NCBI GenBank assembly: GCA_037134875.1
Contig: JBAXLH010000001.1
Span: 5,322 to 69,321 of the forward strand
Direction: 5' to 3'
Source: a bacterium
GTDB taxonomy: Bacteria > Patescibacteriota > Minisyncoccia > Phycocordibacterales > DATDWN01
Length of the DNA stretch: 64,000 nucleotides
Shown here in pieces: positions 403 to 62,950 of the stretch; positions within the stretch are counted from its first letter, which is position 1, and each line of letters opens with the position of its first letter. The position numbers and the translations under genes were made by a program. The notes beneath the pieces are model-generated. The model made no database searches. It worked only from the letters and a program-made list of their open reading frames with translations, and was not told where the DNA came from.

Positions 403-482
403 CTTTTCCGAAAACGAAATAAATTTCTGCTGAAATTTTTTCTCGTGCTCAGCCCGTCGGCCTGCGCAATGTTTCGGAAAAG
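403..482. repeat. Palindromic intergenic element, family R3 (core ...ttcttcgtgctcRgcccgtcggcctgYgcaatg... between the arms cttttccgaaaac / gtttcggaaaag)
   Basis: The conserved core is shared with copies at 1421-1494, 19366-19459 and 33080-33215 (reverse orientation). The flanking inverted arms are unique to this copy. Confidence 0.6.
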
Positions 483-505
483 CATCCAGTTCAACAAGTT
501 TCTGA

Positions 506-1417
506 TTACTCTTTAATATTATTAAACATTTTTAATTTTTTCTCGACGACATCTTGGACTGCTTTGACAGAAGGCTTCAAAAACTTGTACGGTGCTACCT
601 CCTCTGGATTTTCTGACAGGCCTTTCATAAGTCCCTGTTTGTATGCTACACGAATTTCGGTGTTGATATGCACAATTGCAATACCGTTTGCGATTGACTG
701 TTTGAAATCATCCTCTGAGTTACCTGATCCACCATGGAGAACAAGCGGGACTTTTGTGGCCTCGGCAATTGCCTTGACCCTCTCGATGTTGAGCTTTGGA
801 TCTACGCCTCCTCGGAGCATCCCGTGGAAATTTCCAACAGCTGGAGCGAGCATATCTACACCAGTCAGGTCTACAAACTCTTTTGCCTTGATTGGATCGG
901 TCAGAGATTTCTCATCGAGAAGCACACCTTCGGGAATTGCATCCAAGACTTTTGACGATTGACCAATAAAACCGAGCTCACCCTCTACCAAAACCTCTCT
1001 GCCACAACCCCTCGCATACTCCACACACTGTTTTGCAACTTTTATATTTTCTTCCAAAGAAATATTTGCTCCATCAAAAATAACTGAATCAAATCCAGCA
1101 TCGATGACTTCTTTTACGCGATTAAAAGAGTATGTGTGGTCTGCGTTGAGAAAAATTGGATAGTTGTACTGCTCACGAGTAGCTTTGACCACTGCGGCAA
1201 CCTGTGGAATGCCGACAAAATCTCTCTCGCCCTCTGACACTCCAATAATAATCGGAACATTGAGAGATTGTGCTGCTCGGAAGACTCCCCAAAATGCTTC
1301 CATATTTGAAATATTAAAATGACCTATCGCTACTTTTTTTTCTAACGCCTCATGCACACATTCTTTTAATGTTTTCATGTCAGTAATTATACCATACAGA
1401 TTTCCCAGACAAAACAC
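506..1417 (-). CDS. fba: Class II fructose-bisphosphate aldolase
   Basis: 303 aa. The N-terminal region is ...AIGHFNISNMEAFWGVFRAAQSLNVPIIIGVSEGE... and the C-terminal motifs are LHGGSGNSEDDF, typical of FbaA/KbaY class II aldolases. Confidence 0.85.
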   Translation of the reverse strand: MFCLGNLYGIITDMKTLKECVHEALEKKVAIGHFNISNMEAFWGVFRAAQSLNVPIIIGVSEGERDFVGIPQVAAVVKATREQYNYPIFLNADHTYSFNRVKEVIDAGFDSVIFDGANISLEENIKVAKQCVEYARGCGREVLVEGELGFIGQSSKVLDAIPEGVLLDEKSLTDPIKAKEFVDLTGVDMLAPAVGNFHGMLRGGVDPKLNIERVKAIAEATKVPLVLHGGSGNSEDDFKQSIANGIAIVHINTEIRVAYKQGLMKGLSENPEEVAPYKFLKPSVKAVQDVVEKKLKMFNNIKE

Positions 1418-1420
1418 TAT

Positions 1421-1494
1421 CTTTCAAAAAACGGATAAATTTTTGCTAAAATTTTCCTGCGTAGCCAGCCTCGCTTCGGCAATGTTTTTGAAAG
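1421..1494. repeat. Palindromic intergenic element, family R3 (arms ctttcaaaaaac / gtttttgaaag)
   Basis: The core ggataaatttttgctaaaattttcct-GC hairpin-caatg is near-identical to the reverse complement of 33110-33190. It lies between the divergent fba and pfkB-like genes. Confidence 0.6.
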
Positions 1495-1535
1495 TATATT
1501 TTGTATTGTTTTTACTTGATGGTACAATTACCTAT

Positions 1536-2519
1536 ATGAAAACAGATATTCTCGCCATTGGCGATGTTGTTATAGATGCTTTTATTAGACTCAAAGAAGC
1601 AGAGGTTCGGTGTGACGAACACAAGCAAAATTGCAAGCTGTGTTTGAGTTTTGCTGACAAAGTTCCCTACGAATCCGTTGAAATTTGCAAAGCTGTGGGA
1701 AATTCTGCAAATGCATCTGTATCAGCTGCACGTCTCGGTCTCAATTCTGCACTACTCTCATACGTTGGAAACGACCGAAATGGTGATGAATGTGTTGAAG
1801 AACTCCAAAAAAACAATGTGCACACAGAATATGTCAGAAAAGAGGATGGAAAAGTGACCAACTATCACTATGTGCTCTGGTATGATGTTGATCGCACGAT
1901 TTTGGTCAAGCACGAAACATACAACTACTCTCTCGGCAACATAGAAGCTCCAAAATGGATCTATTTGAGCTCTATGGGAGAAAATTCTCTGGAATTCCAT
2001 ATGGAAATTGCTGACTTTTTGGACAAAAACCCTGACACAAAACTCGTGTTCCAACCTGGAACATTTCAAATGAAATTTGGCAAAGACGCACTCGCACGAA
2101 TCTACAAAAAAACTGATATTTTTTTCTGCAACGTTGAGGAGTCACAGAGAATTTTGGGACGCAGTGACACACGAGATCTCCCAACACTTATGAAAGAAAT
2201 GATGGCTCTTGGCCCAAAAATAGTTTGTATTACAGACGGTATCGATGGTGCATATGCATACGACGGCACACATATGTGGTTTATGTCTGTGTATCCGCAC
2301 GTACCATTCGAGAGAACGGGCGCAGGTGACGCTTTTGCATCCACTGTTACCTCGGCACTTCTTCTTGGCAAAACACTGGAGGAAGCAATGATGTGGGGCC
2401 CGATCAACTCGATGTCAGTTGTCCAAAAAGTCGGCGCACAAAAAGGCCTCCTCACTCGCGAACGACTCGAGGAATATCTTCGCAATGCTCCAACAGACTA
2501 CAAACCAAGATTATTGTAA
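1536..2519 (+). CDS. PfkB-family carbohydrate kinase (ribokinase-like)
   Basis: The start is taken at MKTDILAIGDVVID, because the upstream part of ORF 1377.. is translated repeat sequence. The C-terminal motif is GAGDAF. Confidence 0.8.
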   Translation: MKTDILAIGDVVIDAFIRLKEAEVRCDEHKQNCKLCLSFADKVPYESVEICKAVGNSANASVSAARLGLNSALLSYVGNDRNGDECVEELQKNNVHTEYVRKEDGKVTNYHYVLWYDVDRTILVKHETYNYSLGNIEAPKWIYLSSMGENSLEFHMEIADFLDKNPDTKLVFQPGTFQMKFGKDALARIYKKTDIFFCNVEESQRILGRSDTRDLPTLMKEMMALGPKIVCITDGIDGAYAYDGTHMWFMSVYPHVPFERTGAGDAFASTVTSALLLGKTLEEAMMWGPINSMSVVQKVGAQKGLLTRERLEEYLRNAPTDYKPRLL

Positions 2520-2667: not shown

Positions 2668-3660
2668 TTATTTTTTTCGAGATATTGCTTTTTTGCAAGC
2701 CGAGAGAATGTGTGATTCGCCCATTTCGTAGTATTCCAAAAGTTCTTCGGGTGTACCAGACTGACCAAACTGATCTTTGACTCCGATAAATTCAATCGGT
2801 GTCGGTGACTGTGCGGACAAGAATTCAGCTATCGCACTTCCGAGACCTCCGGCGATTTGATGTTCCTCTACTGTTACAATCGCTCCAACGTTTTTTGCAA
2901 TTTTGAGCAAAGCTTCGGCATCAAGCGGTTTGACTGTTGCAAAATTCCAGACCTGTACTTTGACACCTTCTTTGCTGAGTTTTTCTGCAACTAACAGAGA
3001 TTTGTGCACGAGCGCACCGATTGCAACTATTGCAACATCGGCTTTTTGTTCTCCATAAAACATTTGTGCTTTGCCAAATTCAAATGGAGTATCTTTTGTT
3101 GTAATGATTGGCGTTTTTTCGCGTGCAAGTCTAATGTATACTGGCTTGCCAAGCTCTGCCGCGACGAGCGTGACTCTGTGTGCCTCGAGCGAGTCACATG
3201 GACAAATAACATTCATTCGGGGGAGAATTCGTGTGATAGCAATATCTTCAATCGCCTGATGTGTTCCTCCATCTGGTCCTACCGACACGCCGGCGTGAGA
3301 GCCAACAACTACTGCCGAACATTCGTTGTAACAAATCGTAGTGCGAATCTGCTCCCAATTTCGTCCGGGAGAAAACATTGCATAACTTGTAAAGAAAGGA
3401 ATTTTTCCCATCGCTGCCATACCACTCGCCACACTCGCCAGATTTTGTTCGGCAATACCGATCTGGACAAATCGCTCTGGAAATTTATTTTTAAATAAAT
3501 TCATCTGCGTGGATACAGTGAGGTCAGCACAGAGTCCAACAACCTTTGGATTTTTCTCGCCAGCCTCGAGAAGCCCGCGACCAAAACCCATTCGAATTGG
3601 TTCCTGCTCAATATCTTTGTCCCACAACTTTGGATTTAATTTTTGATTTTGATTTATCAT
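2668..3660 (-). CDS. Transketolase, C-terminal (pyrimidine-binding) subunit
   Basis: 330 aa, with the split-transketolase architecture typical of small genomes. The sequence is collinear with the transketolase C-terminal half (…GPDGGTHQAIEDIA…). Confidence 0.9.
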   Translation of the reverse strand: MINQNQKLNPKLWDKDIEQEPIRMGFGRGLLEAGEKNPKVVGLCADLTVSTQMNLFKNKFPERFVQIGIAEQNLASVASGMAAMGKIPFFTSYAMFSPGRNWEQIRTTICYNECSAVVVGSHAGVSVGPDGGTHQAIEDIAITRILPRMNVICPCDSLEAHRVTLVAAELGKPVYIRLAREKTPIITTKDTPFEFGKAQMFYGEQKADVAIVAIGALVHKSLLVAEKLSKEGVKVQVWNFATVKPLDAEALLKIAKNVGAIVTVEEHQIAGGLGSAIAEFLSAQSPTPIEFIGVKDQFGQSGTPEELLEYYEMGESHILSACKKAISRKK

Positions 3661-3672
3661 ATAGAATATTTA

Positions 3673-3915
3673 TTAAAAACCATGACCTATTGTTAAACTC
3701 ATAAGCACCAAAAGAGTCGTTGGAATAAGCATAATAACACCTACTACAATAACCAATATTCCAATAATCCTAAGAAAGGATGTTTTGTTATCTTCCTCTT
3801 TTGTTGTAACCAAAATCCTAATACCCGTACCTAAAATTACAAGTGCAATTAGAAATATAGGGAAAAAAGTTCCAAAGAGCCCCCAATCCGCAAGACTAAA
3901 AATGTTCCAATTCAT
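3673..3915 (-). CDS. Small integral membrane protein, hypothetical
   Basis: 80 aa with two hydrophobic helices, lying between the two transketolase subunit genes. Confidence 0.35.
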   Translation of the reverse strand: MNWNIFSLADWGLFGTFFPIFLIALVILGTGIRILVTTKEEDNKTSFLRIIGILVIVVGVIMLIPTTLLVLMSLTIGHGF

Positions 3916-3924
3916 ATGTTTGTT

Positions 3925-4824
3925 TTATTCATGCTCACCTCGGATCTGTCCACCGAGCGTGCGAAGTTCGTGTAAAGCAATTTCGACCTGCTTGTCTTTT
4001 GGTGGTTCACCGGCGATTTCTGTGCCGGGAATATTACCGTGCCATTTGAAATCTCGTTCCATATAGCTCACACCTTTGCCAGGAATTGTTCGGGCTATAA
4101 CAACAGATGGCCCATCAAATACCGCTTGTGCTCTGCCAATAGCTGCAATAATTTCGGCAAAATTGTGTCCATCGATTTCCTCCGTATGCCAGCCAAAACT
4201 CTCAAATTTATGAGTGAGAGATTCAAGGGGCATTACATCTTCTGTATATCCGTCAATTTGAATATTATTTCTGTCTATAATCGCAATCAGATTGCCGAGG
4301 CGTTCCTTTCCGGCGAGCATTATTGCTTCCCAGTTTTGACCTTCATCGAGTTCCCCGTCCCCCATTATGCAATAAAAGAATTTGTCGGATGATTTGCCAT
4401 GATCTATTCTATCGGCAATCGCCATTCCGACCGCCTGTGAAAGCCCAGAGCCAAGTGGTCCGGAGCTGGTCTCCACTGCACGCAAAAATTCTCGGTGCGG
4501 GTGTCCTTGGAGACGAGATTTAAACTTTCGAAGTGTCAAAAGTTCTTCTATTGGAAAATATCCGACGTGAGCGAGCGACGCGTACAGCACCGGTGCAATA
4601 TGTCCGTTTGAAACAATAAGCCGATCTCTCTCTGGCCAATCGGGATTGTGCGGATCGTGTTTCAAAATATAAAAATATAGCGCAGTAAATATATCCGCCA
4701 TACCGAGAGGCCCCGCAGAGTGTCCCGATCCAGCCGAGACAAGCATTTCAATAATAGAAATACGAATCTCTTTTGCTTTTTCTTCCAAAAACTTTAACTT
4801 ATCATCTGTTATATTGTTTTGCAT
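3925..4824 (-). CDS. Transketolase, N-terminal (TPP-binding) subunit
   Basis: 299 aa. The motif GHSAGPLGMADIFTALY…GDGELDEGQNWEA is the thiamine-diphosphate-binding fold of the transketolase N-terminal half. Confidence 0.9.
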   Translation of the reverse strand: MQNNITDDKLKFLEEKAKEIRISIIEMLVSAGSGHSAGPLGMADIFTALYFYILKHDPHNPDWPERDRLIVSNGHIAPVLYASLAHVGYFPIEELLTLRKFKSRLQGHPHREFLRAVETSSGPLGSGLSQAVGMAIADRIDHGKSSDKFFYCIMGDGELDEGQNWEAIMLAGKERLGNLIAIIDRNNIQIDGYTEDVMPLESLTHKFESFGWHTEEIDGHNFAEIIAAIGRAQAVFDGPSVVIARTIPGKGVSYMERDFKWHGNIPGTEIAGEPPKDKQVEIALHELRTLGGQIRGEHE

Positions 4825-7543: not shown

Positions 7544-7631
7544 TTTTTTGAGATTAGTAAGTAACATTAAAATTATAGCAATTTATATATAAAAAGAAAA
7601 ATCTCTTTGCGAGATTTTTCCACATAGTCAA

Positions 7632-7793
7632 AATTAAATCAGACTTCCTTGTACTTTTCGAAAAGCAATCTGTCTAGTCCTGGTGGACTAGCGAACTTCT
7701 CGTCGCTCAAGAAAACAATGTCGGATTACCTCGTTGTTTTCTAAGCTCCTGCGAAAGGCTTTTCTCAAAATACAAGGAAATCTGATTTAAAAA
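7632..7793. repeat. Palindromic element, family R4 (core aatctRtctagYcctgStggRctagcgaacttctcgtcgctcaagaaaacaatgtcggWttacctcSttgttttctaagctcctgcgaaagg)
   Basis: The core is shared with 62791-62950. The inner hairpin tagtcc-tgg-tggacta here corresponds to tagccc-tgc-tgggcta there, a compensatory double change. The arms aaattaaatcagacttccttgta… / …tacaaggaaatctgatttaaaaatt are copy-specific. Confidence 0.65.
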
Positions 7794-10805: not shown

Positions 10806-10840
10806 ACAAAAACCCGCATCTCTGCGGGTTTTTGTTTTTA
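10806..10840. terminator. Bidirectional rho-independent terminator hairpin
   Basis: The sequence is aaaaacccgcatctctgcgggtttttgttttt. Confidence 0.55.
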
Positions 10841-10983
10841 GATTATTTATCTAATGTTTGAAACTTTCAGATTTGAGTAAGGTCGCGTATAAAATAAAAA
10901 TCAGACTGGAGACGTATATTGATACGTTGACAGCCTGATTTTTATTTTAGACGATGAGATTACTCAAATCTGGAAGTTTTTAA

Positions 10984-12820: not shown

Positions 12821-12911
12821 TACTTATTATACTCATTTTTCGCCCAATATACAAAATCCAACAGTGATTTTCTGTTGGATTTTGTTTGTAGAAATTAGTG
12901 AGATACAAATG

Positions 12912-13550: not shown

Positions 13551-13602
13551 ATTGCAGTAGTCTACCAGAATTAAATAAAAAATCAACTAAGAAGCGACTG
13601 CA

Positions 13603-13754
13603 CCTCCTCCTGCCATACTCATTTTCAGAGCAACCTTACATTTCCCTGCGGAAATGTAAGGCCGTCCTCGGTCTGAACTTGTCAAGAAGAAATGCCTTGA
13701 CAAGTCCGGCTTCAGACCTGCGGGGTCTCTGAAAATGAGTATGTCAGGAGGAGG
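13603..13754. repeat. Palindromic element, family R2b (related to R2; core contains cttgtcaag…cttgacaagtc)
   Basis: The arms cctcctcctgccatactcattttcagag / ctctgaaaatgagtatgtcaggaggagg are 28 nt with 1 mismatch. It lies immediately adjacent to an R2 copy. Confidence 0.55.
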
Positions 13755-13792
13755 TACATCCAATACTCTGACTATTCAACGGTCGGTTAAAG

Positions 13793-13957
13793 ACCGAAGT
13801 TACTTGCAAATGTTTTTTGAGCCCCCGCAGGCCGTGAGCTGGTCTTGTCAACGACCCGAGCACAGCGAGGGCTCTTGACAAGTCACGGCCGAGGACAGCC
13901 AATCAGTTCGCAGGAACTGATTGGGAAGCTCAAAAAACATTTGCAAGTAACTTCGGT
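13793..13957. repeat. Palindromic element, family R2 (core gcatccgcaggccgtgaRcWtggtcttgtcaaYgacccgagcacagcgagRgctcttgacaagtcacggccgaggac)
   Basis: The core is shared with 15935-16102 and 62097-62270. The perfect 29-nt arms accgaagttacttgcaaatgttttttgagc / gctcaaaaaacatttgcaagtaacttcggt are copy-specific. Confidence 0.7.
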
Positions 13958-13980
13958 TTTTCAACTACCAATTTTTTCCG

Positions 13981-15934: not shown

Positions 15935-16102
15935 AATTATAAAACACCTTTTGAATTTTTCGGAGCATCCGCAGGCCGTGAACATGGTCTTGTCAACGAC
16001 CCGAGCACAGCGAGGGCTCTTGACAAGTCACGGCCGAGGACCGAATGAGCTTTTCGCCGGAAAAGCGAATGTATCCGAAAAATTCAAAAGGTGTTTTATA
16101 AT
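15935..16102. repeat. Palindromic element, family R2
   Basis: The conserved R2 core has the copy-specific arms aattataaaacaccttttgaatttttcgga / tccgaaaaattcaaaaggtgttttataatt. The right arm overlaps the stop codon of the 16103.. gene. Confidence 0.7.
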
Positions 16103-18835
16103 TTACTTGCGATATTTCTCCTGAATCTGCCTCTCAATCTCTTCCCTATCCCCTCCGTACGTGAGATACGATAATTGTTTGAGCGAATCAATAATAGCTG
16201 GATCGCCTTTTGGTGGAAATGGTTCTTTGATGTTGAATGCTTTTTGTGAGGTACCGTTCATAAGCATTTTTACATAGGCATTCAAGTTATCAATATTCAT
16301 AAGATCTTTTGCGGTAAACACCGGAGAAAATTGTTTTTCTAAATATTCTGCGTCCTCGGCACTCACTCGAAAAGAAACAATCGAGCCAACGTTACCAAAC
16401 ACTGCATCGCGGATATTTTCCTGAAGTTGGGCAATAAACTGATGTGCAACAGTCAGTGACAGTTTGTATTTTCGTGCTTCAGAGAGAATGGATGAGATTG
16501 AATCCGTCGTAATGTTTTGGAACTCGTCGATGTAGAGATAAAACGGCGCAAAATCTTTTCCGTAGGAGTCCACACGAGAGAGAGCCGCCATCAGAATTTT
16601 GCCGACAAGAATGAGACCGATGAGATTGGCATTTATATCTCCCAATTTACCTTTGGCCAAATTGACGAGAAGTATTTTTTTGTTATCCATTATGTCGCGA
16701 AAATTGAAAGATGATTTTTCCTGTGCCACGATAGGTCGCATAACTTCGTTTGCAAGAAATACGTCAAATTTATTCACAATATATGGAACAATATTTGCAA
16801 GCGATGACTCTCCGCCAGCTTTCTCAGCAATTTCTTTCCAAAACTCTACAATGACAGGATTTTTGCATCTGGAAACTTTCAAATCCCTAAATGTTTTGTT
16901 GGACAACACCCGAGACACATCCAAAAGTGTACAGCCGGTCTCTGGATCTTCAACAACAAGCATCGCAGCATTTCTAAAATATTGCTGGAAAGCCGGTCCC
17001 ATTGACTCTGGAACATTACCATACAGTTTTTGGAATATACTCAAAAGCTCGTTGACCACAAATGTTTTCTGCTCCGGAAACTTTGGATCATACTCAAGCA
17101 TATTGAGGGCCATTGGACGCTCGGTGTAGCTTGGATCAAAATAAATCACATCTTTGTAACGGTCTTTTGGAATATTTGCCAAAATATCAATAATATCTGT
17201 ACCGTGTGGGTCAATAAAACAACATCCATTACCTCTCTCGATATCCTGAATAATAAGATTTTTGAGAAGAACAGTTTTTCCAGCACCAGTTTGTCCAATG
17301 ACATATAAATGTCTGAGTCGGTCCTGATCCTGCATAAATATTTTTGTCTCAACGTTTCGATAGTTGTTGACACCAATAAATGTACCATCTTCTCCCATAC
17401 CGAGCGGTGCTGGCGCAGAAACAGCCTGATTTTGCTTGAGCTGTGGTGATGGTGAAAGATCTGTTGTGTTGAAATGTAGTAGTGATGTTATTTCGTGCAG
17501 ATTGAGAGGCAATAGCTCGTCTGGATTGTAACTCCTGAAAGAAAAATTTCTGAACATTTTTTGCAGAGCACCTTTTTCAAGACGTTTCCACTCGAGTGAG
17601 TTGGAGACAGGATCGGAAAATTGATTGAATGATGACTCGATACTTTTCAAAATCCGCTCGGAATCCGGCCGACTCTGTGTCGAGACAACGATACGCACAT
17701 TTGTTGCTACTATTTCGCTGGCGATTTTTTGTTTAATTTTTTGAATTGCATCATTGTCCACCGGCTTCTTTTCTTCACCCTCTTTTGGTAATGGTTTGAA
17801 AATTTCTTTGACTGTTTTTGCAAAATCTCCAACAAATGTTTCTGGCAGATTGACCGCGTCTTTTGTTGGCACACCTTTTTCTATTTGCTCAATTGCATAT
17901 TTGTATTTTTTGGTGAAATAGTCCCCTTTTGGAGAGAAAACAATTTGAATTGCAGCTCCTTCGCCATCTTTTGCAATCTTTGAAAAACTGTTGATAACAA
18001 CATTCATTGGATCGTAGTCAAATGACTCGTATGTTTTGAATGGATACACTGGCTTTTCTTTTGTGGTGAGATACGAACCGAGCGAAACACCTTCTCCATT
18101 GAAAATATTGTAGTCATTTGTCGCCTCGACAACTCGCGCTGTCGAGAAAATAGAGACAATGTGTTTCTCAAAAAGCTGTTTGAATTCATCGGGCACCGCA
18201 ACATAAAATACAAATTGGTTACTGCCATTTGCGTTTGCAATTTCGAGTGCAATATAATTTTCTTTTTCTTTTTTTGAAACAACCGAAAGCATTCCAGCAT
18301 AAAACTGCTCCATACTGGAAATCACTTCTTTGAGTCCTTTTTGTTGTTTTTCTTTTTCTTCTTCAAGAAGCACAACCTCATATAAAGTCATTCCAACACC
18401 GCGGAAATCTCTCTCGGAAAGGTTGAGATCATTTGGCTTGTATCCACTTTTTACAAATTGCACCAAAAAACGATGAAAATCATCATCGAGATGAGGGTCT
18501 TTCATTTCAGACAAAACAGAAAGTGCGTTTTTCACACCTTTTTCATTGAGTATTCCGAGGAGCTCCTCCATCTTTTTGTCGTGTCGCTCCGGAGCGAGAT
18601 TCAAAACAATTGACTCAGCATCAGCCTTTGAAAGTGCATACGTATCCGAGAGAACATCTTTTGATAATGTGTCTTTATATTTTGAAATTTGTTCGCGAAC
18701 AACGGTGTCGGTATCCACTTTTTGATCTCGTTCGTGAAGCTGTTTTTCTTTTTCGGCGATTTTACCACGCAAGAAATTTATTTCCTCTTCGGGTGATGTA
18801 AAGCGAGAAGTATTTTCGCTCAAAACTTTTTCCAT
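16103..18835 (-). CDS. VirD4/TraG-like (type IV coupling-protein / DUF87-type) P-loop ATPase
   Basis: 910 aa. The Walker A motif is GQTGAGKTV. The C-terminal …YLYIDEFQNITT…LSLTVAHQFIAQL… resembles the TraD/TraG C-terminal region. The family assignment is tentative. Confidence 0.55.
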   Translation of the reverse strand: MEKVLSENTSRFTSPEEEINFLRGKIAEKEKQLHERDQKVDTDTVVREQISKYKDTLSKDVLSDTYALSKADAESIVLNLAPERHDKKMEELLGILNEKGVKNALSVLSEMKDPHLDDDFHRFLVQFVKSGYKPNDLNLSERDFRGVGMTLYEVVLLEEEKEKQQKGLKEVISSMEQFYAGMLSVVSKKEKENYIALEIANANGSNQFVFYVAVPDEFKQLFEKHIVSIFSTARVVEATNDYNIFNGEGVSLGSYLTTKEKPVYPFKTYESFDYDPMNVVINSFSKIAKDGEGAAIQIVFSPKGDYFTKKYKYAIEQIEKGVPTKDAVNLPETFVGDFAKTVKEIFKPLPKEGEEKKPVDNDAIQKIKQKIASEIVATNVRIVVSTQSRPDSERILKSIESSFNQFSDPVSNSLEWKRLEKGALQKMFRNFSFRSYNPDELLPLNLHEITSLLHFNTTDLSPSPQLKQNQAVSAPAPLGMGEDGTFIGVNNYRNVETKIFMQDQDRLRHLYVIGQTGAGKTVLLKNLIIQDIERGNGCCFIDPHGTDIIDILANIPKDRYKDVIYFDPSYTERPMALNMLEYDPKFPEQKTFVVNELLSIFQKLYGNVPESMGPAFQQYFRNAAMLVVEDPETGCTLLDVSRVLSNKTFRDLKVSRCKNPVIVEFWKEIAEKAGGESSLANIVPYIVNKFDVFLANEVMRPIVAQEKSSFNFRDIMDNKKILLVNLAKGKLGDINANLIGLILVGKILMAALSRVDSYGKDFAPFYLYIDEFQNITTDSISSILSEARKYKLSLTVAHQFIAQLQENIRDAVFGNVGSIVSFRVSAEDAEYLEKQFSPVFTAKDLMNIDNLNAYVKMLMNGTSQKAFNIKEPFPPKGDPAIIDSLKQLSYLTYGGDREEIERQIQEKYRK

Positions 18836-18913: not shown

Positions 18914-19726
18914 TCACTTCCTCAAATAATACAACCTCATCTCTTCTGGAAATCGCTCAATGGAATATCGTAGAGCGGTGCGTGGAATATGGGAGTAGTG
19001 TTTGTCCAAAAATTTTCGCAATGTCCCCTCGTCTTTTTTGCCGACTTCACGGAGCATCCAACCAACAGCTTTGTGGATCAGATCATGTGTGTCAGAAAGT
19101 AACATCTCTGCGATCTTGAGTGTGTCACCAAAATCGCCCTGACGTATGAAAGTGAGCGTTGAAATAATAGAGATTCTCTTTTTCCACAAATCTTTCGACT
19201 CAGCAAATGTGTACAAAATATCTCGAGGTTTATCCAGCAGATATGTTCCGACAATCTGCGGAGCTGACAAATCCACCAAATCCCAATTGTTTATGTATTT
19301 TGTGTTTTTAATGTACAGGTCAAAAATTTGTTTTTGAACTCTTAACATACCAGATTTCTGTCTCAACATATGCTGGTCTGAAAACAGAATATTCGCCTGC
19401 TGGCGAATTTCTTCGTGCTCGGCCCGTCGGCCTGTGCAATGTTTCAGACCAGCATATGTCTTCGACGAAATCTGATACTTTTGAATCAAAATCAACAGGG
19501 CAACCATTCGACATTCATGAATTTCTGATTTGAGTAGCTTTACAACATCCGCAAATGGTAAATCGACAAATTGTTTGGCGACGTTGCGCTGATCTGGCAT
19601 TACAATTCCCAAAAAAACATCTCCTTCGCCATACTCCCCTTTGCCAGTCTTAAAAAACCGAGAAAGTATTTTGGCTTTCCCTTTACTCGACTTCTTTTTC
19701 AATTTTGAAATTAGGTTATTGTACAT
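18914..19726 (-). CDS. DNA alkylation repair protein (AlkD/AlkC-like HEAT-repeat glycosylase) carrying an in-frame repeat-element insertion
   Basis: The N-terminus is FFKTGKGEYGEGDVFLGI and the C-terminus is WMLREVGKK…RTALRYSIERF. The reading frame continues through the R3 element at 19366-19459. Confidence 0.7.
   Translation of the reverse strand: MYNNLISKLKKKSSKGKAKILSRFFKTGKGEYGEGDVFLGIVMPDQRNVAKQFVDLPFADVVKLLKSEIHECRMVALLILIQKYQISSKTYAGLKHCTGRRAEHEEIRQQANILFSDQHMLRQKSGMLRVQKQIFDLYIKNTKYINNWDLVDLSAPQIVGTYLLDKPRDILYTFAESKDLWKKRISIISTLTFIRQGDFGDTLKIAEMLLSDTHDLIHKAVGWMLREVGKKDEGTLRKFLDKHYSHIPRTALRYSIERFPEEMRLYYLRK
19366..19459. repeat. Palindromic element, family R3, inserted in frame within the alkD-like CDS
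   Basis: The arms are acatatgctggtctgaaaac / gtttcagaccagcatatgt and the core is …ttcttcgtgctcggcccgtcggcctgtgcaatg. It is translated as …HCTGRRAEHEEIRQQANILFSDQHMLRQKSGM…. Confidence 0.65.
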
Positions 19727-19740
19727 GGTGGTAGTATTTC

Positions 19741-19870
19741 TCTTTAATTTCGTTGACTCAAAATTTTTTTTGAGGCTTCGCAGGCGGGTAGCCGAGACTT
19801 GAGAAATTTGCCAGCAGGCAAATATTCGTACTCAAAAAAAGTTTTGAGGAAAAAGAAATTAAAGAGAAAT
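19741..19870. repeat. Palindromic element, family R1
   Basis: The R1 core has the copy-specific arms tctttaatttcgttgactcaaaattttttttgag / ctcaaaaaaagttttgaggaaaaagaaattaaaga. Confidence 0.65.
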
Positions 19871-23961: not shown

Positions 23962-25263
23962 TTACTCTCTTTCGAGCCATTCTGGCTCCTGTCTCACAAG
24001 TAGTTTTGTTTTGTCTTCTGGGTGTCGCATTATTTCCTCCACTACCCGCTCTAGACGCATTGCTTGTGAGCCTTTGACGAGCACCGTATCCCCTTCCTCG
24101 ACGAAATTTTGTAAGTCTTTTCCGGCTTGGGTGGCAGTATCAAAGCATCGAATGTTTGCCGAGTCATACCCAAGAGTCAAAAGCTCGTTGGATGTTATAT
24201 ACGCCCTGATGCCAACACAATACACAATCCCCGCAACATCCTTTATGAGTCCAGCAATTTTCTTGTGTTCGTCAGCAGAAAATTTTCCGAGCTCGAGCAT
24301 ATCGCCGAGCACAACAATTTTCCTTTTTCGAGAATCAATCCGAGAAAAAACATTCATTGCCTCTGCAAATGATGCAGGAGATGAATTGTATGAATCGTCA
24401 ATCACCAGTGCATTTTTTATTCCCGCAACAATATTCATTCTGCCCGGCAGAGATCTAAATTGGTTGAGAGATGAGATAATATCAAAATGAGATATACCAA
24501 ATCGCTGTGCTACTGCATACGCCATGAGACATGCATATTCATTGTGAATACCGAGAGATCCAAAAATAGTAACTGAAGATTTTTCTCCTTGTGAGGATAT
24601 TTCAAATAACATACCTGTTGGATGTTGACCTGATTTTTCATTACTATATAGTATGCGAAATTCTGAACCACTGACATCTATTCCTCCACCGACTCCACAG
24701 GAAATTTGTTTTATTTCTGTCTCCTTTGCGAGTACAGAAGAATGAATATCGTCTGCATTGAACACCACAAAACCATCACGTGCTACCGCACTGGCCAAAT
24801 ATCTTTTTTCATCGAGAAAATGTGAGATGTTTTGAAAGAATTCAATATGTGAAGGTGCTTCGCCAATTGCTGTAATAACAAGAATATCAATCTTGAGCCA
24901 CGAACTCACACCACGCAGATCTCCTGGCTTGTCACCATCCATTTCTAAAATAAGCCAGCTTGGATAATTATGTTTGAAAAGCAAAAGTTTGAAACCAAAA
25001 AAAATATTCTGAATCCATTGTACAAACGAGCCAGTACCAATCGGGCACCCTAAAATAGTGAGTGGTACACCAAGCTCGGTTGTAAAACTCTTTTCACTTT
25101 TTCGTACGAAAAATTTCCGCGACAACACAAGATACAGAGCCTCTTTTGTTGTCGTCTTACCAACACTACCCGTAATGGCAATTATTTTTGGTTTGTATTT
25201 TCGGAGTACAAGTCTGGCCTCATACTGAAAAATCTTTTTTGCGAGCTGTTTGAGAATATCCAT
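23962..25263 (-). CDS. Mur ligase family protein (MurF/MurE-type UDP-MurNAc-peptide ligase)
   Basis: The P-loop is ITGSVGKTTTKE and the Mur ligase middle and C-terminal domains are present. It sits downstream of ftsI in the dcw cluster. Confidence 0.75.
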   Translation of the reverse strand: MDILKQLAKKIFQYEARLVLRKYKPKIIAITGSVGKTTTKEALYLVLSRKFFVRKSEKSFTTELGVPLTILGCPIGTGSFVQWIQNIFFGFKLLLFKHNYPSWLILEMDGDKPGDLRGVSSWLKIDILVITAIGEAPSHIEFFQNISHFLDEKRYLASAVARDGFVVFNADDIHSSVLAKETEIKQISCGVGGGIDVSGSEFRILYSNEKSGQHPTGMLFEISSQGEKSSVTIFGSLGIHNEYACLMAYAVAQRFGISHFDIISSLNQFRSLPGRMNIVAGIKNALVIDDSYNSSPASFAEAMNVFSRIDSRKRKIVVLGDMLELGKFSADEHKKIAGLIKDVAGIVYCVGIRAYITSNELLTLGYDSANIRCFDTATQAGKDLQNFVEEGDTVLVKGSQAMRLERVVEEIMRHPEDKTKLLVRQEPEWLERE

Positions 25264-36303: not shown

Positions 36304-36505
36304 AGGTTTTTAAAAGTTTGCGAGTTTTGTAAATTAAAACTACGGCGAGATCATTTTCTTTTCTGAATTATAGTTTTACGACCCTTGTCTCGGCACAGTA
36401 ATTTTGGAGCACGCGATAAGTCCTGCTGGACTTTCGCTCAATCTCGCGCCGTCGCGCTCCGAAGTCTCCAAAATCACTGCGCCTTCGACGTGGTCGTAAA
36501 TCTTT

Positions 36506-39335: not shown

Positions 39336-39394
39336 ATTACCACAAAAAGTAAAAATTGCAAATTTATTATTTAGTATTATGGAGTATGGATTCT

Positions 39395-39520
39395 CATTAA
39401 ATAAATTTTTCGCATTCGCAGGTTTTTGATTCAGATGACAACAATTTTTTCTAGTCGTGAGCGTTTAGTCCTGTGTAACAAGGACCGACCGTAGGGAGTC
39501 CGCGGAAGACAGAAAAAATT
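39395..39520. repeat. Palindromic element (singleton in this window, family R5)
   Basis: The imperfect arms ggtttttgattcagatgacaacaattttttct / agaaaaaattgtgcttcatctgacaaaaacc surround the core gtcctgtgtaacaaggac…ggagtccgcgg. Confidence 0.4.
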
Positions 39521-39576
39521 GTGCTTCATCTGACAAAAACCGAGGACGTGAAAAATTTACTCAATGAGAATTATAT

Positions 39577-44842: not shown

Positions 44843-45012
44843 AGATTGGGGTGGGACCCAATCGCAAGACCGGAGCGCGACGGCGCGAGGTGGGGTCGCA
44901 GGATTTTTCAACAGAAAAATACCTGTGACGAGCCTGTGTGGTATATAACATTTTTGAACCCCTCTTGATTACTATTTTGAGAATAATAATCAAGACAAGT
45001 TTTGAAATATAT

Positions 45013-45366
45013 TCCGCGGTAGCTCAGTGGTAGAGCGATCGCCTGTAAAGTGCTTGCAGCTTCCTAAAGTAATTTAGGCTGAAAAATGAGGTGAATTCGG
45101 GGAAACCCCACGTGGGCAATCCCGAGCCAAGCCACTTTCAAGTTTTGATTTTTTATATTTAGAAATTAAAACTTGAAAGTGGAAGGTGTAGAGACTATCT
45201 CGAAAGAGAGTAGTTATTATTTTTCAAATAAAATAATCACGAAGCGCCCCACATCCCACTTGTTTATCAAAAATAGATAAAGGATGATGATATAGTCCAT
45301 ACCAAAGGCAACTTTGGAATCAATGTAAGCGATTGGTCGTAGGTTCGATCCCTACCCGCGGAGCCA
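45013..45366 (+). tRNA. tRNA-Asn (GUU) interrupted by a group I intron in the anticodon loop; CCA encoded
   Basis: The 5' exon TCCGCGGTAGCTCAGTGGTAGAGCGATCGCCTGT spans 45013-45046. The 3' exon TAAGCGATTGGTCGTAGGTTCGATCCCTACCCGCGGAG+CCA spans 45326-45366. The splice satisfies the group I rule (5' exon ends in U, intron ends in G). The alternative reading is Tyr(GUA) if the boundaries are shifted by 3 nt. Confidence 0.6.
45047..45325 (+). ncRNA. Group I self-splicing intron (no ORF)
   Basis: About 279 nt. It contains the conserved group I core element GATGATATAGTCC (consensus AAGAUAUAGUCC, P7/S region) near 45283-45298 and ends in G. Confidence 0.65.
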
Positions 45367-45744
45367 AAAAGTTTAAACCCCGAAAGGGGTTTTTACTTTT
45401 CTTGGCTCCGTGGAGCAGAACAGGGTTCTGCGTGTAGGGATCGAACAGTTTGTCGGTTTACAAGTTTAGCAAAACTTGTCGACAAACTGGTGGCCAGGAT
45501 TTTCTGTTTTGACGAAAACAGAAAATCTGAGGCCGATACCCCTACCCGCGGAGCCAAAAAGTTTAAACCCCGAAAGGGGTTTTTACTTTTCTTGGCTCCG
45601 TGGAGCAGAACAGGGTTCTGCGTGTAGGGATCGAACAGTTTGTCGGTTTACAAGTTTAGCAAAACTTGTCGACAAACTGGTGGCCAGGATTTTCTGTTTT
45701 GACGAAAACAGAAAATCTGAGGCCGATACCCCTACCCGCGGAGC
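45367..45744. repeat. Tandem direct repeat, 2 x 190 nt; each unit ends in a copy of the tRNA-Asn 3' end (cctacccgcggagcc) and begins with its inverted copy (ggctccgtggag)
   Basis: The two units are identical (45367-45556 and 45557-45744). Each has a terminator hairpin aaaccccgaaaggggttttt, an inverted degenerate T-arm-like segment (gtagggatcgaac) and two long hairpins. Confidence 0.8.
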
Positions 45745-55049: not shown

Positions 55050-55542
55050 GTATAGAGACGACTTAGAGGACCATATCTTACCAAATTAAAGAAAGTGTGT
55101 CTAATTGAAAAAAATGAAAATAATTTTGTAAGAAATAAATAATAAGCGCGTCTGAAGGTATACAAAGGTCGATGCATTGTACAATACACAATCATGTAAA
55201 ATAAATCACATAAATTACATATGAGTACAACAAATAGTTTCAAAAACTATACAAAGAAAGTGCCGATGAGCACATATGGGTATGCAAAGAAAAAATTTCT
55301 CTGGATACTCAATAACCAAAAAAAAGCTTTTCGTGTTACATACAACAATCAAAAGCAAAAAGTTAAAAGATATCTAAATAACATAAGGTATTCTATGACT
55401 TACATAAAACCAATATACAAAATGACAACTTCACCACCTTTTACATAGCAAGGCAACGAGCGAAATTATATCGCTCTCAATAACTAAATATAATGCCGCC
55501 AAAATAAAAAACTCAAAATATAATCTCTATTCTAAAAAGAAA

Positions 55543-55572
55543 ACCCAACCTCGTGTTGGGTTTTCTTTTTGT
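55543..55572. terminator. Rho-independent terminator downstream of ackA
   Basis: The sequence is aacccaacctcgtgttgggttttcttttt. Confidence 0.5.
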
Positions 55573-62075: not shown

Positions 62076-62096
62076 GGTTTTTAATTTGTTAGTTTT

Positions 62097-62270
62097 TCAA
62101 AATTTAATTGAGACTACATCCTTTTTGGAGCATCCGCAGGCCGTGAGCATGGTCTTGTCAATGACCCGAGCACAGCGAGAGCTCTTGACAAGTCACGGCC
62201 GAGGACCGAATGAGTTTTTCGCTGGAAAAGCGAGTGTATCTGAAAAGGATGTGGTTTCGATTAAATTTTG
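62097..62270. repeat. Palindromic element, family R2, filling the spacer between the hydrogenase small- and large-subunit genes
   Basis: The R2 core has the arms caaaatttaattgagactacatcc / ggatgtggtttcgattaaattttg. Confidence 0.65.
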
Positions 62271-62273
62271 AAA

Positions 62274-62756: not shown

Positions 62757-62790
62757 ATGAATAGTATATCATAAGTTAATTTGTTAGATT

Positions 62791-62950
62791 CAAAAACCGA
62801 TAGGAGCATATCTTTCACGGAGCAATCTATCTAGCCCTGCTGGGCTAGCGAACTTCTCGTCGCTCAAGAAAACAATGTCGGTTTACCTCCTTGTTTTCTA
62901 AGCTCCTGCGAAAGGCTCCGGAAAAGATATGCTCCTATCGGTTTTTTAAA
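62791..62950. repeat. Palindromic element, family R4
   Basis: The R4 core has the arms caaaaaccgataggagcatatctttcacggagc / gctccggaaaagatatgctcctatcggtttttt. Confidence 0.65.

Follow-up and report, generated by a model that had tools for sequence, protein, structure and literature searches.

The 64-kb window of DNA analyzed here (64,000 nucleotides in all) belongs to a contig of a Patescibacteria/candidate phyla radiation (CPR) bacterium, metagenome-assembled genome (MAG) GCA_964547445.1, and contains multiple copies of a palindromic element, R3, in which a conserved core is enclosed by long inverted arms that differ largely from copy to copy. We propose, with a probability that we place at roughly 55%, that R3 is a non-autonomous mobile module that homes to the tips of hairpins, that template switching rewrites its arms and that recombination shuffles its modules. 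The proposal is built on features that we observed directly: the anatomy of the element, covariation in its core, its distribution, its in-frame insertion into genes, orthologous sites that are empty or partly filled, inverted copies of arms and flanks, and mosaicism among copies.

A covariance model (CM), R1, was built from 12 aligned R3 copies and then run on the window and on other loci (cited below by their L numbers), and it identified eight strong R3 copies in the window, with scores of 60-87 bits. An earlier sequence-only reading had named four copies, here copies 1 to 4; all four are present at the places it gave, but they are not the only ones in the window, and the extents assigned to copies 1 to 3 proved too small. 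Copy 1 occupies 380-504 (+; CM hit 407-477), directly after the stop codon of fba, and is a full layered hairpin (DNA fold z-score -7.6). In it 380-388 and 496-504 form the outer stem, TTTCTCA at 389-395 and TTCAAC at 490-495 the internal loop, and 396-413 and 472-489 the inner stem, which includes mismatches over a 4-nt patch, around a core at 414-471. The fba gene itself (506-1378, minus strand; class II fructose-bisphosphate aldolase, Pfam PF01116, E 2e-77) separates copy 1 from copy 2 (+; CM hit 1424-1490, 60 bits), which lies in the divergent pfkB-fba spacer within a composite hairpin at 1385-1529 and has terminal repeats at 1421-1430/1485-1494 around a degenerate core (1431-1484) in which the helix termed P3 below is mutated. 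Copy 3 (19351-19474, +; CM hit 19377-19447) has outer stem 19351-19358/19467-19474, a perfect inner stem 19366-19383/19442-19459 and core 19384-19441, and is in frame within an AlkD-like DNA glycosylase gene (18914-19726, minus strand). Copy 4 (33088-33206, -; CM hit 33114-33181, 87 bits) has 32-bp perfect arms without an internal loop around core 33120-33174.

Three of the additional copies belong to a subfamily that we term 'b'. The first, at 2522-2659 (-; CM hit 2557-2625, 77 bits), lies between convergent gene ends and has outer stem 2522-2537/2644-2659, inner stem 2548-2561/2620-2633, core 2562-2619 and a P2 helix TTTGCC/GGCAAA; the second is at 19736-19870 (-; CM hit 19770-19836); and the third, at 28827-28957 (-; CM hit 28860-28926), is upstream of mraZ, with outer stem 28827-28838/28946-28957. 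The eighth copy, of subfamily 'd', is at 36375-36500 (+; CM hit 36404-36471, 64 bits), with P2 AGTCC/GGACT, inner stem 36392-36409/36466-36483 and outer stem 36375-36383/36492-36500. Three weak R1 hits of 17-24 bits were also noted, at 44873-44924(-), 28261-28306(-) and 24276-24331(-); the first, in which a P3-like motif (GAGCGCGACGGCGCGAG) is present, is perhaps a family member that has degraded or is only distantly related.

The cores align beyond chance, as the sequence-only reading had held: the core motif has two exact matches in the window, against zero expected from 100 dinucleotide shuffles. Its claim of near-perfect inverted arms around each core was likewise borne out, with perfect or near-perfect arms of 11-32 nt (11 nt in copy 1, 18 nt in copy 3, and 32 nt in copy 4) and whole-element fold z-scores of -5 to -12. 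Copy 2, whose core is mutated, folds less strongly in its inner part (about -2.4). The arms far exceed chance. The contig was recovered from five data sets at 100% identity, and the hairpins are therefore not assembly artefacts; by the same token, no filled/empty polymorphism of the window's own copies was found among these five assemblies.

The R3 core, of 56-58 nt, folds on either strand as a three-way junction closed by the arms. Of its two internal helices, P2 spans some 10 bp, contains a bulged T that is conserved and is capped by a TGCT loop, and P3 is GC-rich with a CGTC loop (TACCC in one subfamily). What had first been described as a variable 5' hairpin in the core is a covarying helix, P2, and the GC-rich part of the core is the second covarying helix, P3. 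In 32 distinct sequences 94.6% of P2 and P3 cells are paired, double changes occur in all 14 P2/P3 pairs, the covariation score was reached by 0 of 500 shuffles, and one-sided changes of the G-U type account for only 7 cells as compared with 98 double changes.

Covariation of this strength, together with conserved loop, bulge and junction sequences, stable three-way-junction folds, compensated changes between the copies at L011 and L024, and the co-directional genes that flank most copies, is what would be expected if R3 were a non-coding RNA with a defined structure (an unknown ribozyme, a cis-regulatory hairpin, or a signal for processing or stabilization), with the arms as its closing helix. 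We regard this as very improbable. Copies occur in both orientations relative to transcription, orientation relative to the flanking genes being mixed among the eight window copies, and sense and antisense copies are both in frame within genes, namely those for AlkD and MnmA. R3 is also absent from orthologous sites of relatives at 90% identity, G-U intermediates are almost lacking, and the copies are mosaic, some of them degenerate (copy 2 and L007). A search of Rfam 15 (gathering score and E<=5), self-cleaving ribozymes included, assigned no family to any R3 copy. The occurrence in both orientations, the in-frame genic copies and the mosaicism point to selfish mobile DNA and not an RNA gene. 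A single Rfam microRNA-hairpin match over R3 was dismissed as spurious. Consensus motifs of the hammerhead, twister, pistol, hatchet and hairpin ribozymes, compared by eye with the R3 junctions, gave no fit, in agreement with Rfam.

Once about 30 copies had been compared, taken from other genomes as well as the window, the arms proved to be layered. The first layer, adjoining the core, is a terminal repeat of 8-9 bp that is constant within a subfamily (TCTGAAA, TTTGAAAAA, TTTTTTGAG or TTTTGGAG). The second is a variable stretch of 6-9 bp that fills out an inner stem of 14-18 bp. The third, present in most copies, is an asymmetric internal loop with TTWYTCR or CTTGTCT on the left and YTC(A/G)AC or TTCGACG on the right, and the fourth is a variable outer stem of 7-18 bp, often an A-run plus CTC facing GAG plus a T-run. 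Perfect arms of 25-32 bp without the loop motif are found in copy 4, L013-805 and L021-8557. The core faces the same way with respect to the loop motif in about 19 of 19 independent layered copies. The sequence-only reading had considered the arms unrelated between copies, and this is roughly true past the seven core-proximal bases, beyond which the arms of the four named copies are identical at only 3-10 of 17-18 positions; it does not apply to the 8-9 bp repeats, the loop motif, or the arm series recognizable across genomes (ACATATG..., GTATATG... and GTGTAT... beside TCTGAAA).

The 74-nt centres at 19766-19839 and 28856-28929 are 100% identical while the arms beyond them differ, and the 61-nt core of copy 4 is 100% identical to that of a copy in another MAG (L010), with unrelated arms. 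P2 type, P3 type and terminal-repeat type also reassort, the same P2 being found with different partners, and R3 copies are thus mosaic. Such pairs are difficult to accommodate if R3 is an ordinary old family of MITEs (miniature inverted-repeat transposable elements), whose true terminal inverted repeats have diverged by point mutation and compensatory change and which does not target hairpins. That explanation draws on the arm series related across genomes, on the 90.6% identity over 96 nt, arms included, between copy 3 and L021-8557, and on the arms common to copies in the JBAYWK01 MAG. In addition to the identical 61-74 nt centres with unrelated arms, it faces the empty hairpins at orthologous sites and the insertion hot spot at a native A7/T7 quasi-palindrome described below, and about 300 kb of sequence yielded no related autonomous element; we consider it quite unlikely. 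The original view that R3 is not a textbook MITE is upheld, as most of the inverted-repeat length is unconserved, the flanking duplication is inconsistent, and no parent insertion sequence (IS) with R3-like ends was seen in those ~300 kb.

To examine occupied and unoccupied sites we compared the window with related genomes, all of these comparisons being on partial genomes. Homologues of fba at 90-91% identity keep the pfkB-fba-dehydrogenase gene order. In L035, whose fba is 90% identical, the pfkB-fba spacer is of 60 nt and consists of an empty perfect palindrome, TACCATAACAAATTTTAAA / TTTAAAATTTGTTATGGTA, of 17-19 bp (DNA fold z -6.1). The corresponding window spacer is of 158 nt and has copy 2 within a hairpin closed by AATTATACCAT (1385-1395) / ATGGTACAATT (1519-1529), and this outermost stem shares TACCAT/ATGGTA with the outer part of the L035 palindrome. 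The spacers were compared by anchored reading and folds, as a global MAFFT alignment misplaces the right arm. The L035 orthologue of the copy 2 site is thus a palindrome without a core, the empty site that the first reading had proposed looking for. L035 does carry an R3 copy elsewhere (3993-4128, between the dehydrogenase and L21 genes, 50.6 bits), so that this genome does harbor the family and lacks it only at the orthologous pfkB-fba site. On the other side of fba, the 3' spacer is of 1 nt in L036, of 76 nt with a plain 14-bp hairpin in L037/L038, of 181 nt with a different hairpin element in L035, and of 206 nt, including copy 1, in the window.

The divergent pfkB and fba genes both begin ATGA(A/G)AACA (window 1375-1545; L035 1894-1971), and in L035 the inverted symmetry of the spacer extends through both start codons as 39-nt arms that are 79% complementary. 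This suggests a symmetric operator/promoter arrangement at the pfkB-fba spacer that is older than the R3 insertion. The pairing of R3 copies around fba, which the sequence-only reading had singled out, is nothing special, since long-arm hairpin elements occupy many other spacers of the window.

Within genes, the AlkD-like ORF is spanned by Pfam PF08713 and copy 3 is in frame and stop-free. The protein is of 270 residues, compared with 227-264 (mostly 231-242) among the 119 homologues listed, and its extra segment maps onto the copy 3 hairpin, in a loop between helices. A second gene, mnmA, is a recurrent site: among 120 Patescibacteria homologues, 62 have a basic linker of 15-22 residues at the relevant position, 35 have small and 23 large insertions, and the linker is thus a hot spot with in-frame insertions of 5-43 residues in 58 of 120. 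The uninserted site is GAAAAAAATGGTTTTTTTGAA, an A7/T7 quasi-palindrome. In L011, L020 and L024 the MnmA gene carries a layered R3 of 126 nt, read in the sense opposite to the AlkD case. A mosaic R3 copy occupies this codon position also in the MnmA of the window organism itself (L030, a different contig), and L028, of another lineage, carries an inverted copy encoding a peptide, GRRSEREEIRQQANILF, that resembles the AlkD insert. The MnmA loci concerned are L030 (7560-7766), L011 (minus strand, forward 4310-4519; reverse complement 3482-3691), L024 (558-767), L026, L028, L023 and L025. Several different hairpin element families, in both orientations, were also seen among the insertions at this hot spot.

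The MnmA alleles include a partly filled state. In L023, the closest relative of L024, only an outer hairpin is present, TTTGATAAATCT - CTTTCTCCTCAACA - AGATTTATCAAA, and in L011 and L024 the same hairpin has 90 nt, comprising inner stems and core, in its loop. Up to 5 bp (CTCAA) are found on both sides of the 90-nt unit in the filled alleles, and the redundant junctions leave its boundaries ambiguous. Empty perfect hairpins of 12-20 bp in the style A-run, stem, loop, stem, T-run are common in these genomes. Taken together, the L035 palindrome, the MnmA alleles and the uninserted A7/T7 site support integration at the tips of hairpin-prone sequences, which would give each R3 copy arms of its own; insertion into pre-existing hairpins was one of the two explanations that the sequence-only reading had offered, and these three sites speak for it. 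In the window, unoccupied perfect hairpins of 10-16 bp with loops TCTC, CTCGT and TTTGC were noted at 10806-10835, 12851-12885, 55534-55570 and 7596-7620; these resemble bidirectional terminators and the outer stems of layered R3 copies and are candidate targets. Beside copy 1 there is a further unoccupied hairpin at 312-353 (GAAACTCGTTTT...AAAACAGAGTTTC, read from the sequence), whose AAACTC/GAGTTT stem, by reading alone, resembles the outer stems of layered copies.

The other explanation, a mechanism that generates inverted duplications of flanks, also gained support. The left outer arm of L023 is native coding flank, TTT GAT AAA TCT (FDKS) as compared with TTT GAA AAA AAT (FEKN), and its right outer arm is the inverted complement of the left, from which it follows that the added DNA comprises a loop and an inverted duplicate of the flank. 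An inverted left arm, left loop motif included, takes the place of the core and right arm in L025 and is identical at 23 of 25 positions to the canonical left arm, and in L013-7725 the right arm holds the exact complement of the left loop motif in place of the usual right motif. Three double changes, each compensated, separate the orthologous copies of L011 and L024. These inverted copies and compensated changes look like the footprints expected of intrastrand template switching, which passages of PMC8794818, PMC13100816 and PMC8604942 report to create, homogenize and expand inverted repeats. Template switching could also account, without selection, for some of the covariation and for G-U intermediates being almost absent.

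In the mechanism that we propose, the unit moved would be of about 74-90 bp and non-coding, consisting of the 56-58 nt core plus terminal inverted repeats of 8-18 bp, and the branched core would probably be the handle for an enzyme that is structure-specific and works on cruciform or single-stranded DNA. The landing site would be the tip of a hairpin-prone inverted repeat, such as an A-run/T-run terminator-like hairpin, a divergent-promoter palindrome or the loop of an earlier module, with the orientation of insertion fixed relative to the pyrimidine-rich loop motif TTTCTCA ... TCTCAAC, which includes a direct repeat of up to 5 bp. Stems of the target would be inherited as private arms, and repeated events could give rise to the nested, layered hairpins of about 120-140 bp. 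Later intrastrand template switching during replication would copy one arm onto the other, or make an arm from inverted flank, and may thereby preserve the near-perfect match of the arms within each copy even as the arms of different copies diverge; terminal repeats, P2 and P3 would be reshuffled among copies by recombination. In this scheme three things are inferred: whether each event was a gain or a loss, the template-switch process, and the enzyme, both as to its existence and its nature.

Several points weigh against this mechanism. About 120 of the 137 nt of the genic hairpin in L030 are absent from uninserted alleles, and most of the genic arm DNA being absent there, target-derived stems would explain just the outermost few bp at such sites. 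The flanking direct repeat differs among copies, TCTCA-like motifs being frequent and often unequal on the two sides, and with a direct repeat this inconsistent a classical target duplication is unproven. The L035 palindrome and the L023 hairpin could be remnants of precise deletion instead of pre-insertion states. The variable 6-9 bp segment has no direct explanation in the scheme, and mosaic recombination is our suggestion for it. No enzyme or transposase tied to R3 was found, tblastn with approximate Y1/RAYT (REP-associated tyrosine transposase) queries against 184 kb of partial genomes, a weak test, giving nothing below E 0.3, and the sole transposase-like ORF in the window is IS110-like with no demonstrated tie to R3. 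Finally, the constant inner stem of 14-18 bp and the fixed orientation of the core could equally mean that the whole structure of about 105-125 bp is one mobile unit.

That last point leads to a different account, in which the entire layered hairpin (~105-125 bp, with asymmetric ends CTCTTTCTCA ... TCTCAACGAG) is mobile, the outer arms are made at insertion by fold-back or template-switch duplication of the flank, and hairpin-only alleles arise by deletion between the TCTCA direct repeats inside the element. It would account for the near-constant size of the genic inserts (+40-41 residues in L011, L024 and L030; the AlkD hairpin is of 124 nt), for the core always being the same way round relative to the loop motif, for the native-like left outer arm and inverted right arm of L023, L011 and L024, and for the inverted copy of the left arm in L025. 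Nevertheless, the empty L035 palindrome shares the outermost stem of the copy 2 site, 62 of 120 MnmA alleles already have the native A7/T7 hairpin at the hot spot, long perfect arms exist without the loop motif (copy 4, L013-805 and L021-8557), and alleles of about +31-35 residues suggest that the inner unit can be present without the outer module. We judge mobility of the whole hairpin to be unlikely, and favor homing of the smaller module to hairpin tips.

A strict core pattern was scanned once over 185,579 species genomes and once over JGI metagenomes, and true R3 copies were found only in a few Patescibacteria MAGs and contigs. The CM gave 29 strong hits in 153 kb, comprising the window and 10 loci of other MAGs or metagenome contigs, with further subfamilies among them; it also matched L035 and MnmA genes from another four lineages. 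Overall we count about 30 R3 copies, about 20 of which are in other Patescibacteria MAGs. Four metagenome matches (L012, L016, L017 and L022) were rejected as chance matches in high-GC coding DNA. Two scans of viral contigs yielded no true R3 copy, and one viral match, L034, was set aside as a chance match in high-GC DNA without a CM hit.

No description of an R3 element was found in a search of the published literature, although R3 has features in common with several known systems. Set beside the Rickettsia palindromic elements (RPEs) by description, it is alike in being a palindromic repeat of ~100-150 bp in a reduced-genome bacterium, in spacers and stop-free in frame in housekeeping genes, and, as with RPEs, the in-frame insert is tolerated as an extra peptide (in AlkD, and in MnmA of several lineages). 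RPE families are conserved over their full length, arms included. R3 differs from them in its conserved three-way-junction core, its largely copy-specific layered arms and its host phylum. With MITEs such as Correia, RUP and Nezha it shares being small, non-coding, multi-copy and hairpin-forming (74-140 bp, eight copies in 64 kb, about 30 overall), and it has short conserved terminal repeats (TCTGAAA/TTTCAGA and TTTTTTGAG/CTCAAAAAA). Unlike classical MITEs, it shows no consistent target duplication, no parent IS with matching ends was seen in the ~300 kb, and its arms are mostly unconserved.

In its proposed targeting R3 resembles IS1397/ISKpn1 and elements of the IS110/IS1111 family such as IS621, which enter the loop or centre of existing palindromes in a fixed orientation, with duplication absent or very short. 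These are autonomous elements of 1-1.5 kb with their own enzyme, whereas R3 has only 74-125 bp, codes for nothing, and shows no visible derivation from the ends of the window's IS110-like element. PATEs (palindrome-associated transposable elements), derived from IS200/IS605, have distinct subterminal hairpins at each end, in contrast to the single long hairpin with branched centre of R3, and the tblastn search described above (approximate queries, partial genomes) gave no TnpA-like match. PATEs insert in a specific orientation beside a fixed penta- or tetranucleotide, with no duplication; in about 19 layered R3 copies the core is always the same way round with respect to the TCTCA-type motif, but the exact junctions are ambiguous. 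Template-switch (quasi-palindrome) mutagenesis matches the arm copying in L025, L023 and L013-7725; as a mutational process, it leaves unexplained the conserved core and its spread to many loci and genomes.

Passages of PMC3733652 describe repetitive extragenic palindromic (REP) elements as short, hairpin-forming extragenic repeats in which paired changes keep the hairpin, implying recognition of folded single-stranded DNA, and in which a CGTC tetranucleotide occurs. R3 resembles REPs and REPINs, which RAYT (Y1 HUH) transposases mobilize, in that its hairpin is kept by paired changes and CGTC is present. In REPs the arms are the conserved part of a palindrome of 20-40 bp that carries a GTAG/CGTC tag at its 5' foot, whereas in R3 the CGTC is the P3 loop of a branched core and the arms are variable, and no RAYT-like gene was detected by tblastn with approximate queries in the 184 kb of partial genomes.

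Four other candidates were rejected. Integron attC sites have pairing outer R''/R' boxes (RYYYAAC / GTTRRRY), a variable centre, and a place at cassette ends beside an integrase. R3 has the inverse pattern, with a conserved centre and variable outer stems, and its TCTCAAC faces TTTCTCA unpaired; this reversal, together with its context in housekeeping operons (mraZ-mraW-pbp-murE and fba), led us to discard attC. Intrinsic terminators have a GC-rich stem, a short loop and then a T-run, and lie 3' of genes in the sense orientation; of R3, a consensus scan for them flags in copy 3 its inner P2 hairpin and nothing else, no T-run follows the stem of copy 1 on either strand, and copies also occur in promoter spacers and within genes. 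TIGR-Tas arrays are tandem 36-nt units, as opposed to dispersed hairpins, and a box C/D-like motif is a CUGA within the TCTGAAA repeat that lacks a C box.

A very small Patescibacteria genome gives most of many of its spacers to nested hairpins and tolerates them within essential enzymes. If R3 homes to hairpin tips, it would be a tractable case of structure-directed, not sequence-directed, integration, and a natural record of long perfect palindromes arising and persisting via template switching; the conserved branched core could then be used as bait for the enzyme responsible. Candidates for this enzyme would include HUH/Y1 proteins, IS110-type DEDD proteins, tyrosine recombinases and DUF8128/TraG-like proteins noted in the vicinity. 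There is also a warning for annotation, in that R3 lengthens proteins by about 40 residues and mimics covarying RNA genes and terminators.

At least four further families in the window have structured cores of 80-140 nt within copy-specific inverted arms of 20-34 bp, often perfect, and occupy many spacers. Family B is represented at 13781-13969, 15935-16103 and 62095-62273, family C at 7634-7790 and 62789-62949, and other long-arm elements are at 13599-13758, 39390-39571 (a family found also in L011 and L021) and 10861-10979. Several of these sister elements open with a P2-like hairpin with a 4-nt loop (TGCT, CTGC or GGCG). R3 and its sisters may conceivably form an undescribed class of structure-guided mobile DNA, in which an enzyme recognizes a three-way-junction fold and integrates it at hairpin tips or cruciform dyads whatever the sequence of the stem, and in which fold-back synthesis, set off or used by the insertion, writes new inverted arms from the flank; we put this forward as a tentative possibility and are inclined to doubt it. 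If true, it would explain the nested hairpins in most spacers, the recurrent in-frame MnmA insertions (58 of 120) and de novo long palindromes.

Two further regions of the window have unusual repeats. The IS110-like transposase ORF (30902-32443, minus strand; a partial match to PF02371 only) is flanked by three non-coding repeats of about 340 nt with 75-82% identity (29866-30213, 30312-30670 and 32524-32859). R3 copy 4 lies about 230 nt from this region (29866-32859), with no link between them established. At 45015-45365 a group I intron (Rfam, 70 bits, 45042-45318) lies within an apparent tRNA gene that received no call from ARAGORN, the split gene having a 5' exon ...GCGGTAGCTCAGTGGTAGAGCGATCGCCT and a 3' exon ending ...GGTTCGATCCCTACCCGCGGAGCCA. 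Directly 3' of it are two overlapping 205-nt copies of a sequence (45350-45554 and 45540-45744), offset by 190 nt and 100% identical, in which the tRNA 3' end (CCCTACCCGCGGAGCC) occurs three times together with perfect 13-bp hairpins with GACG loops.

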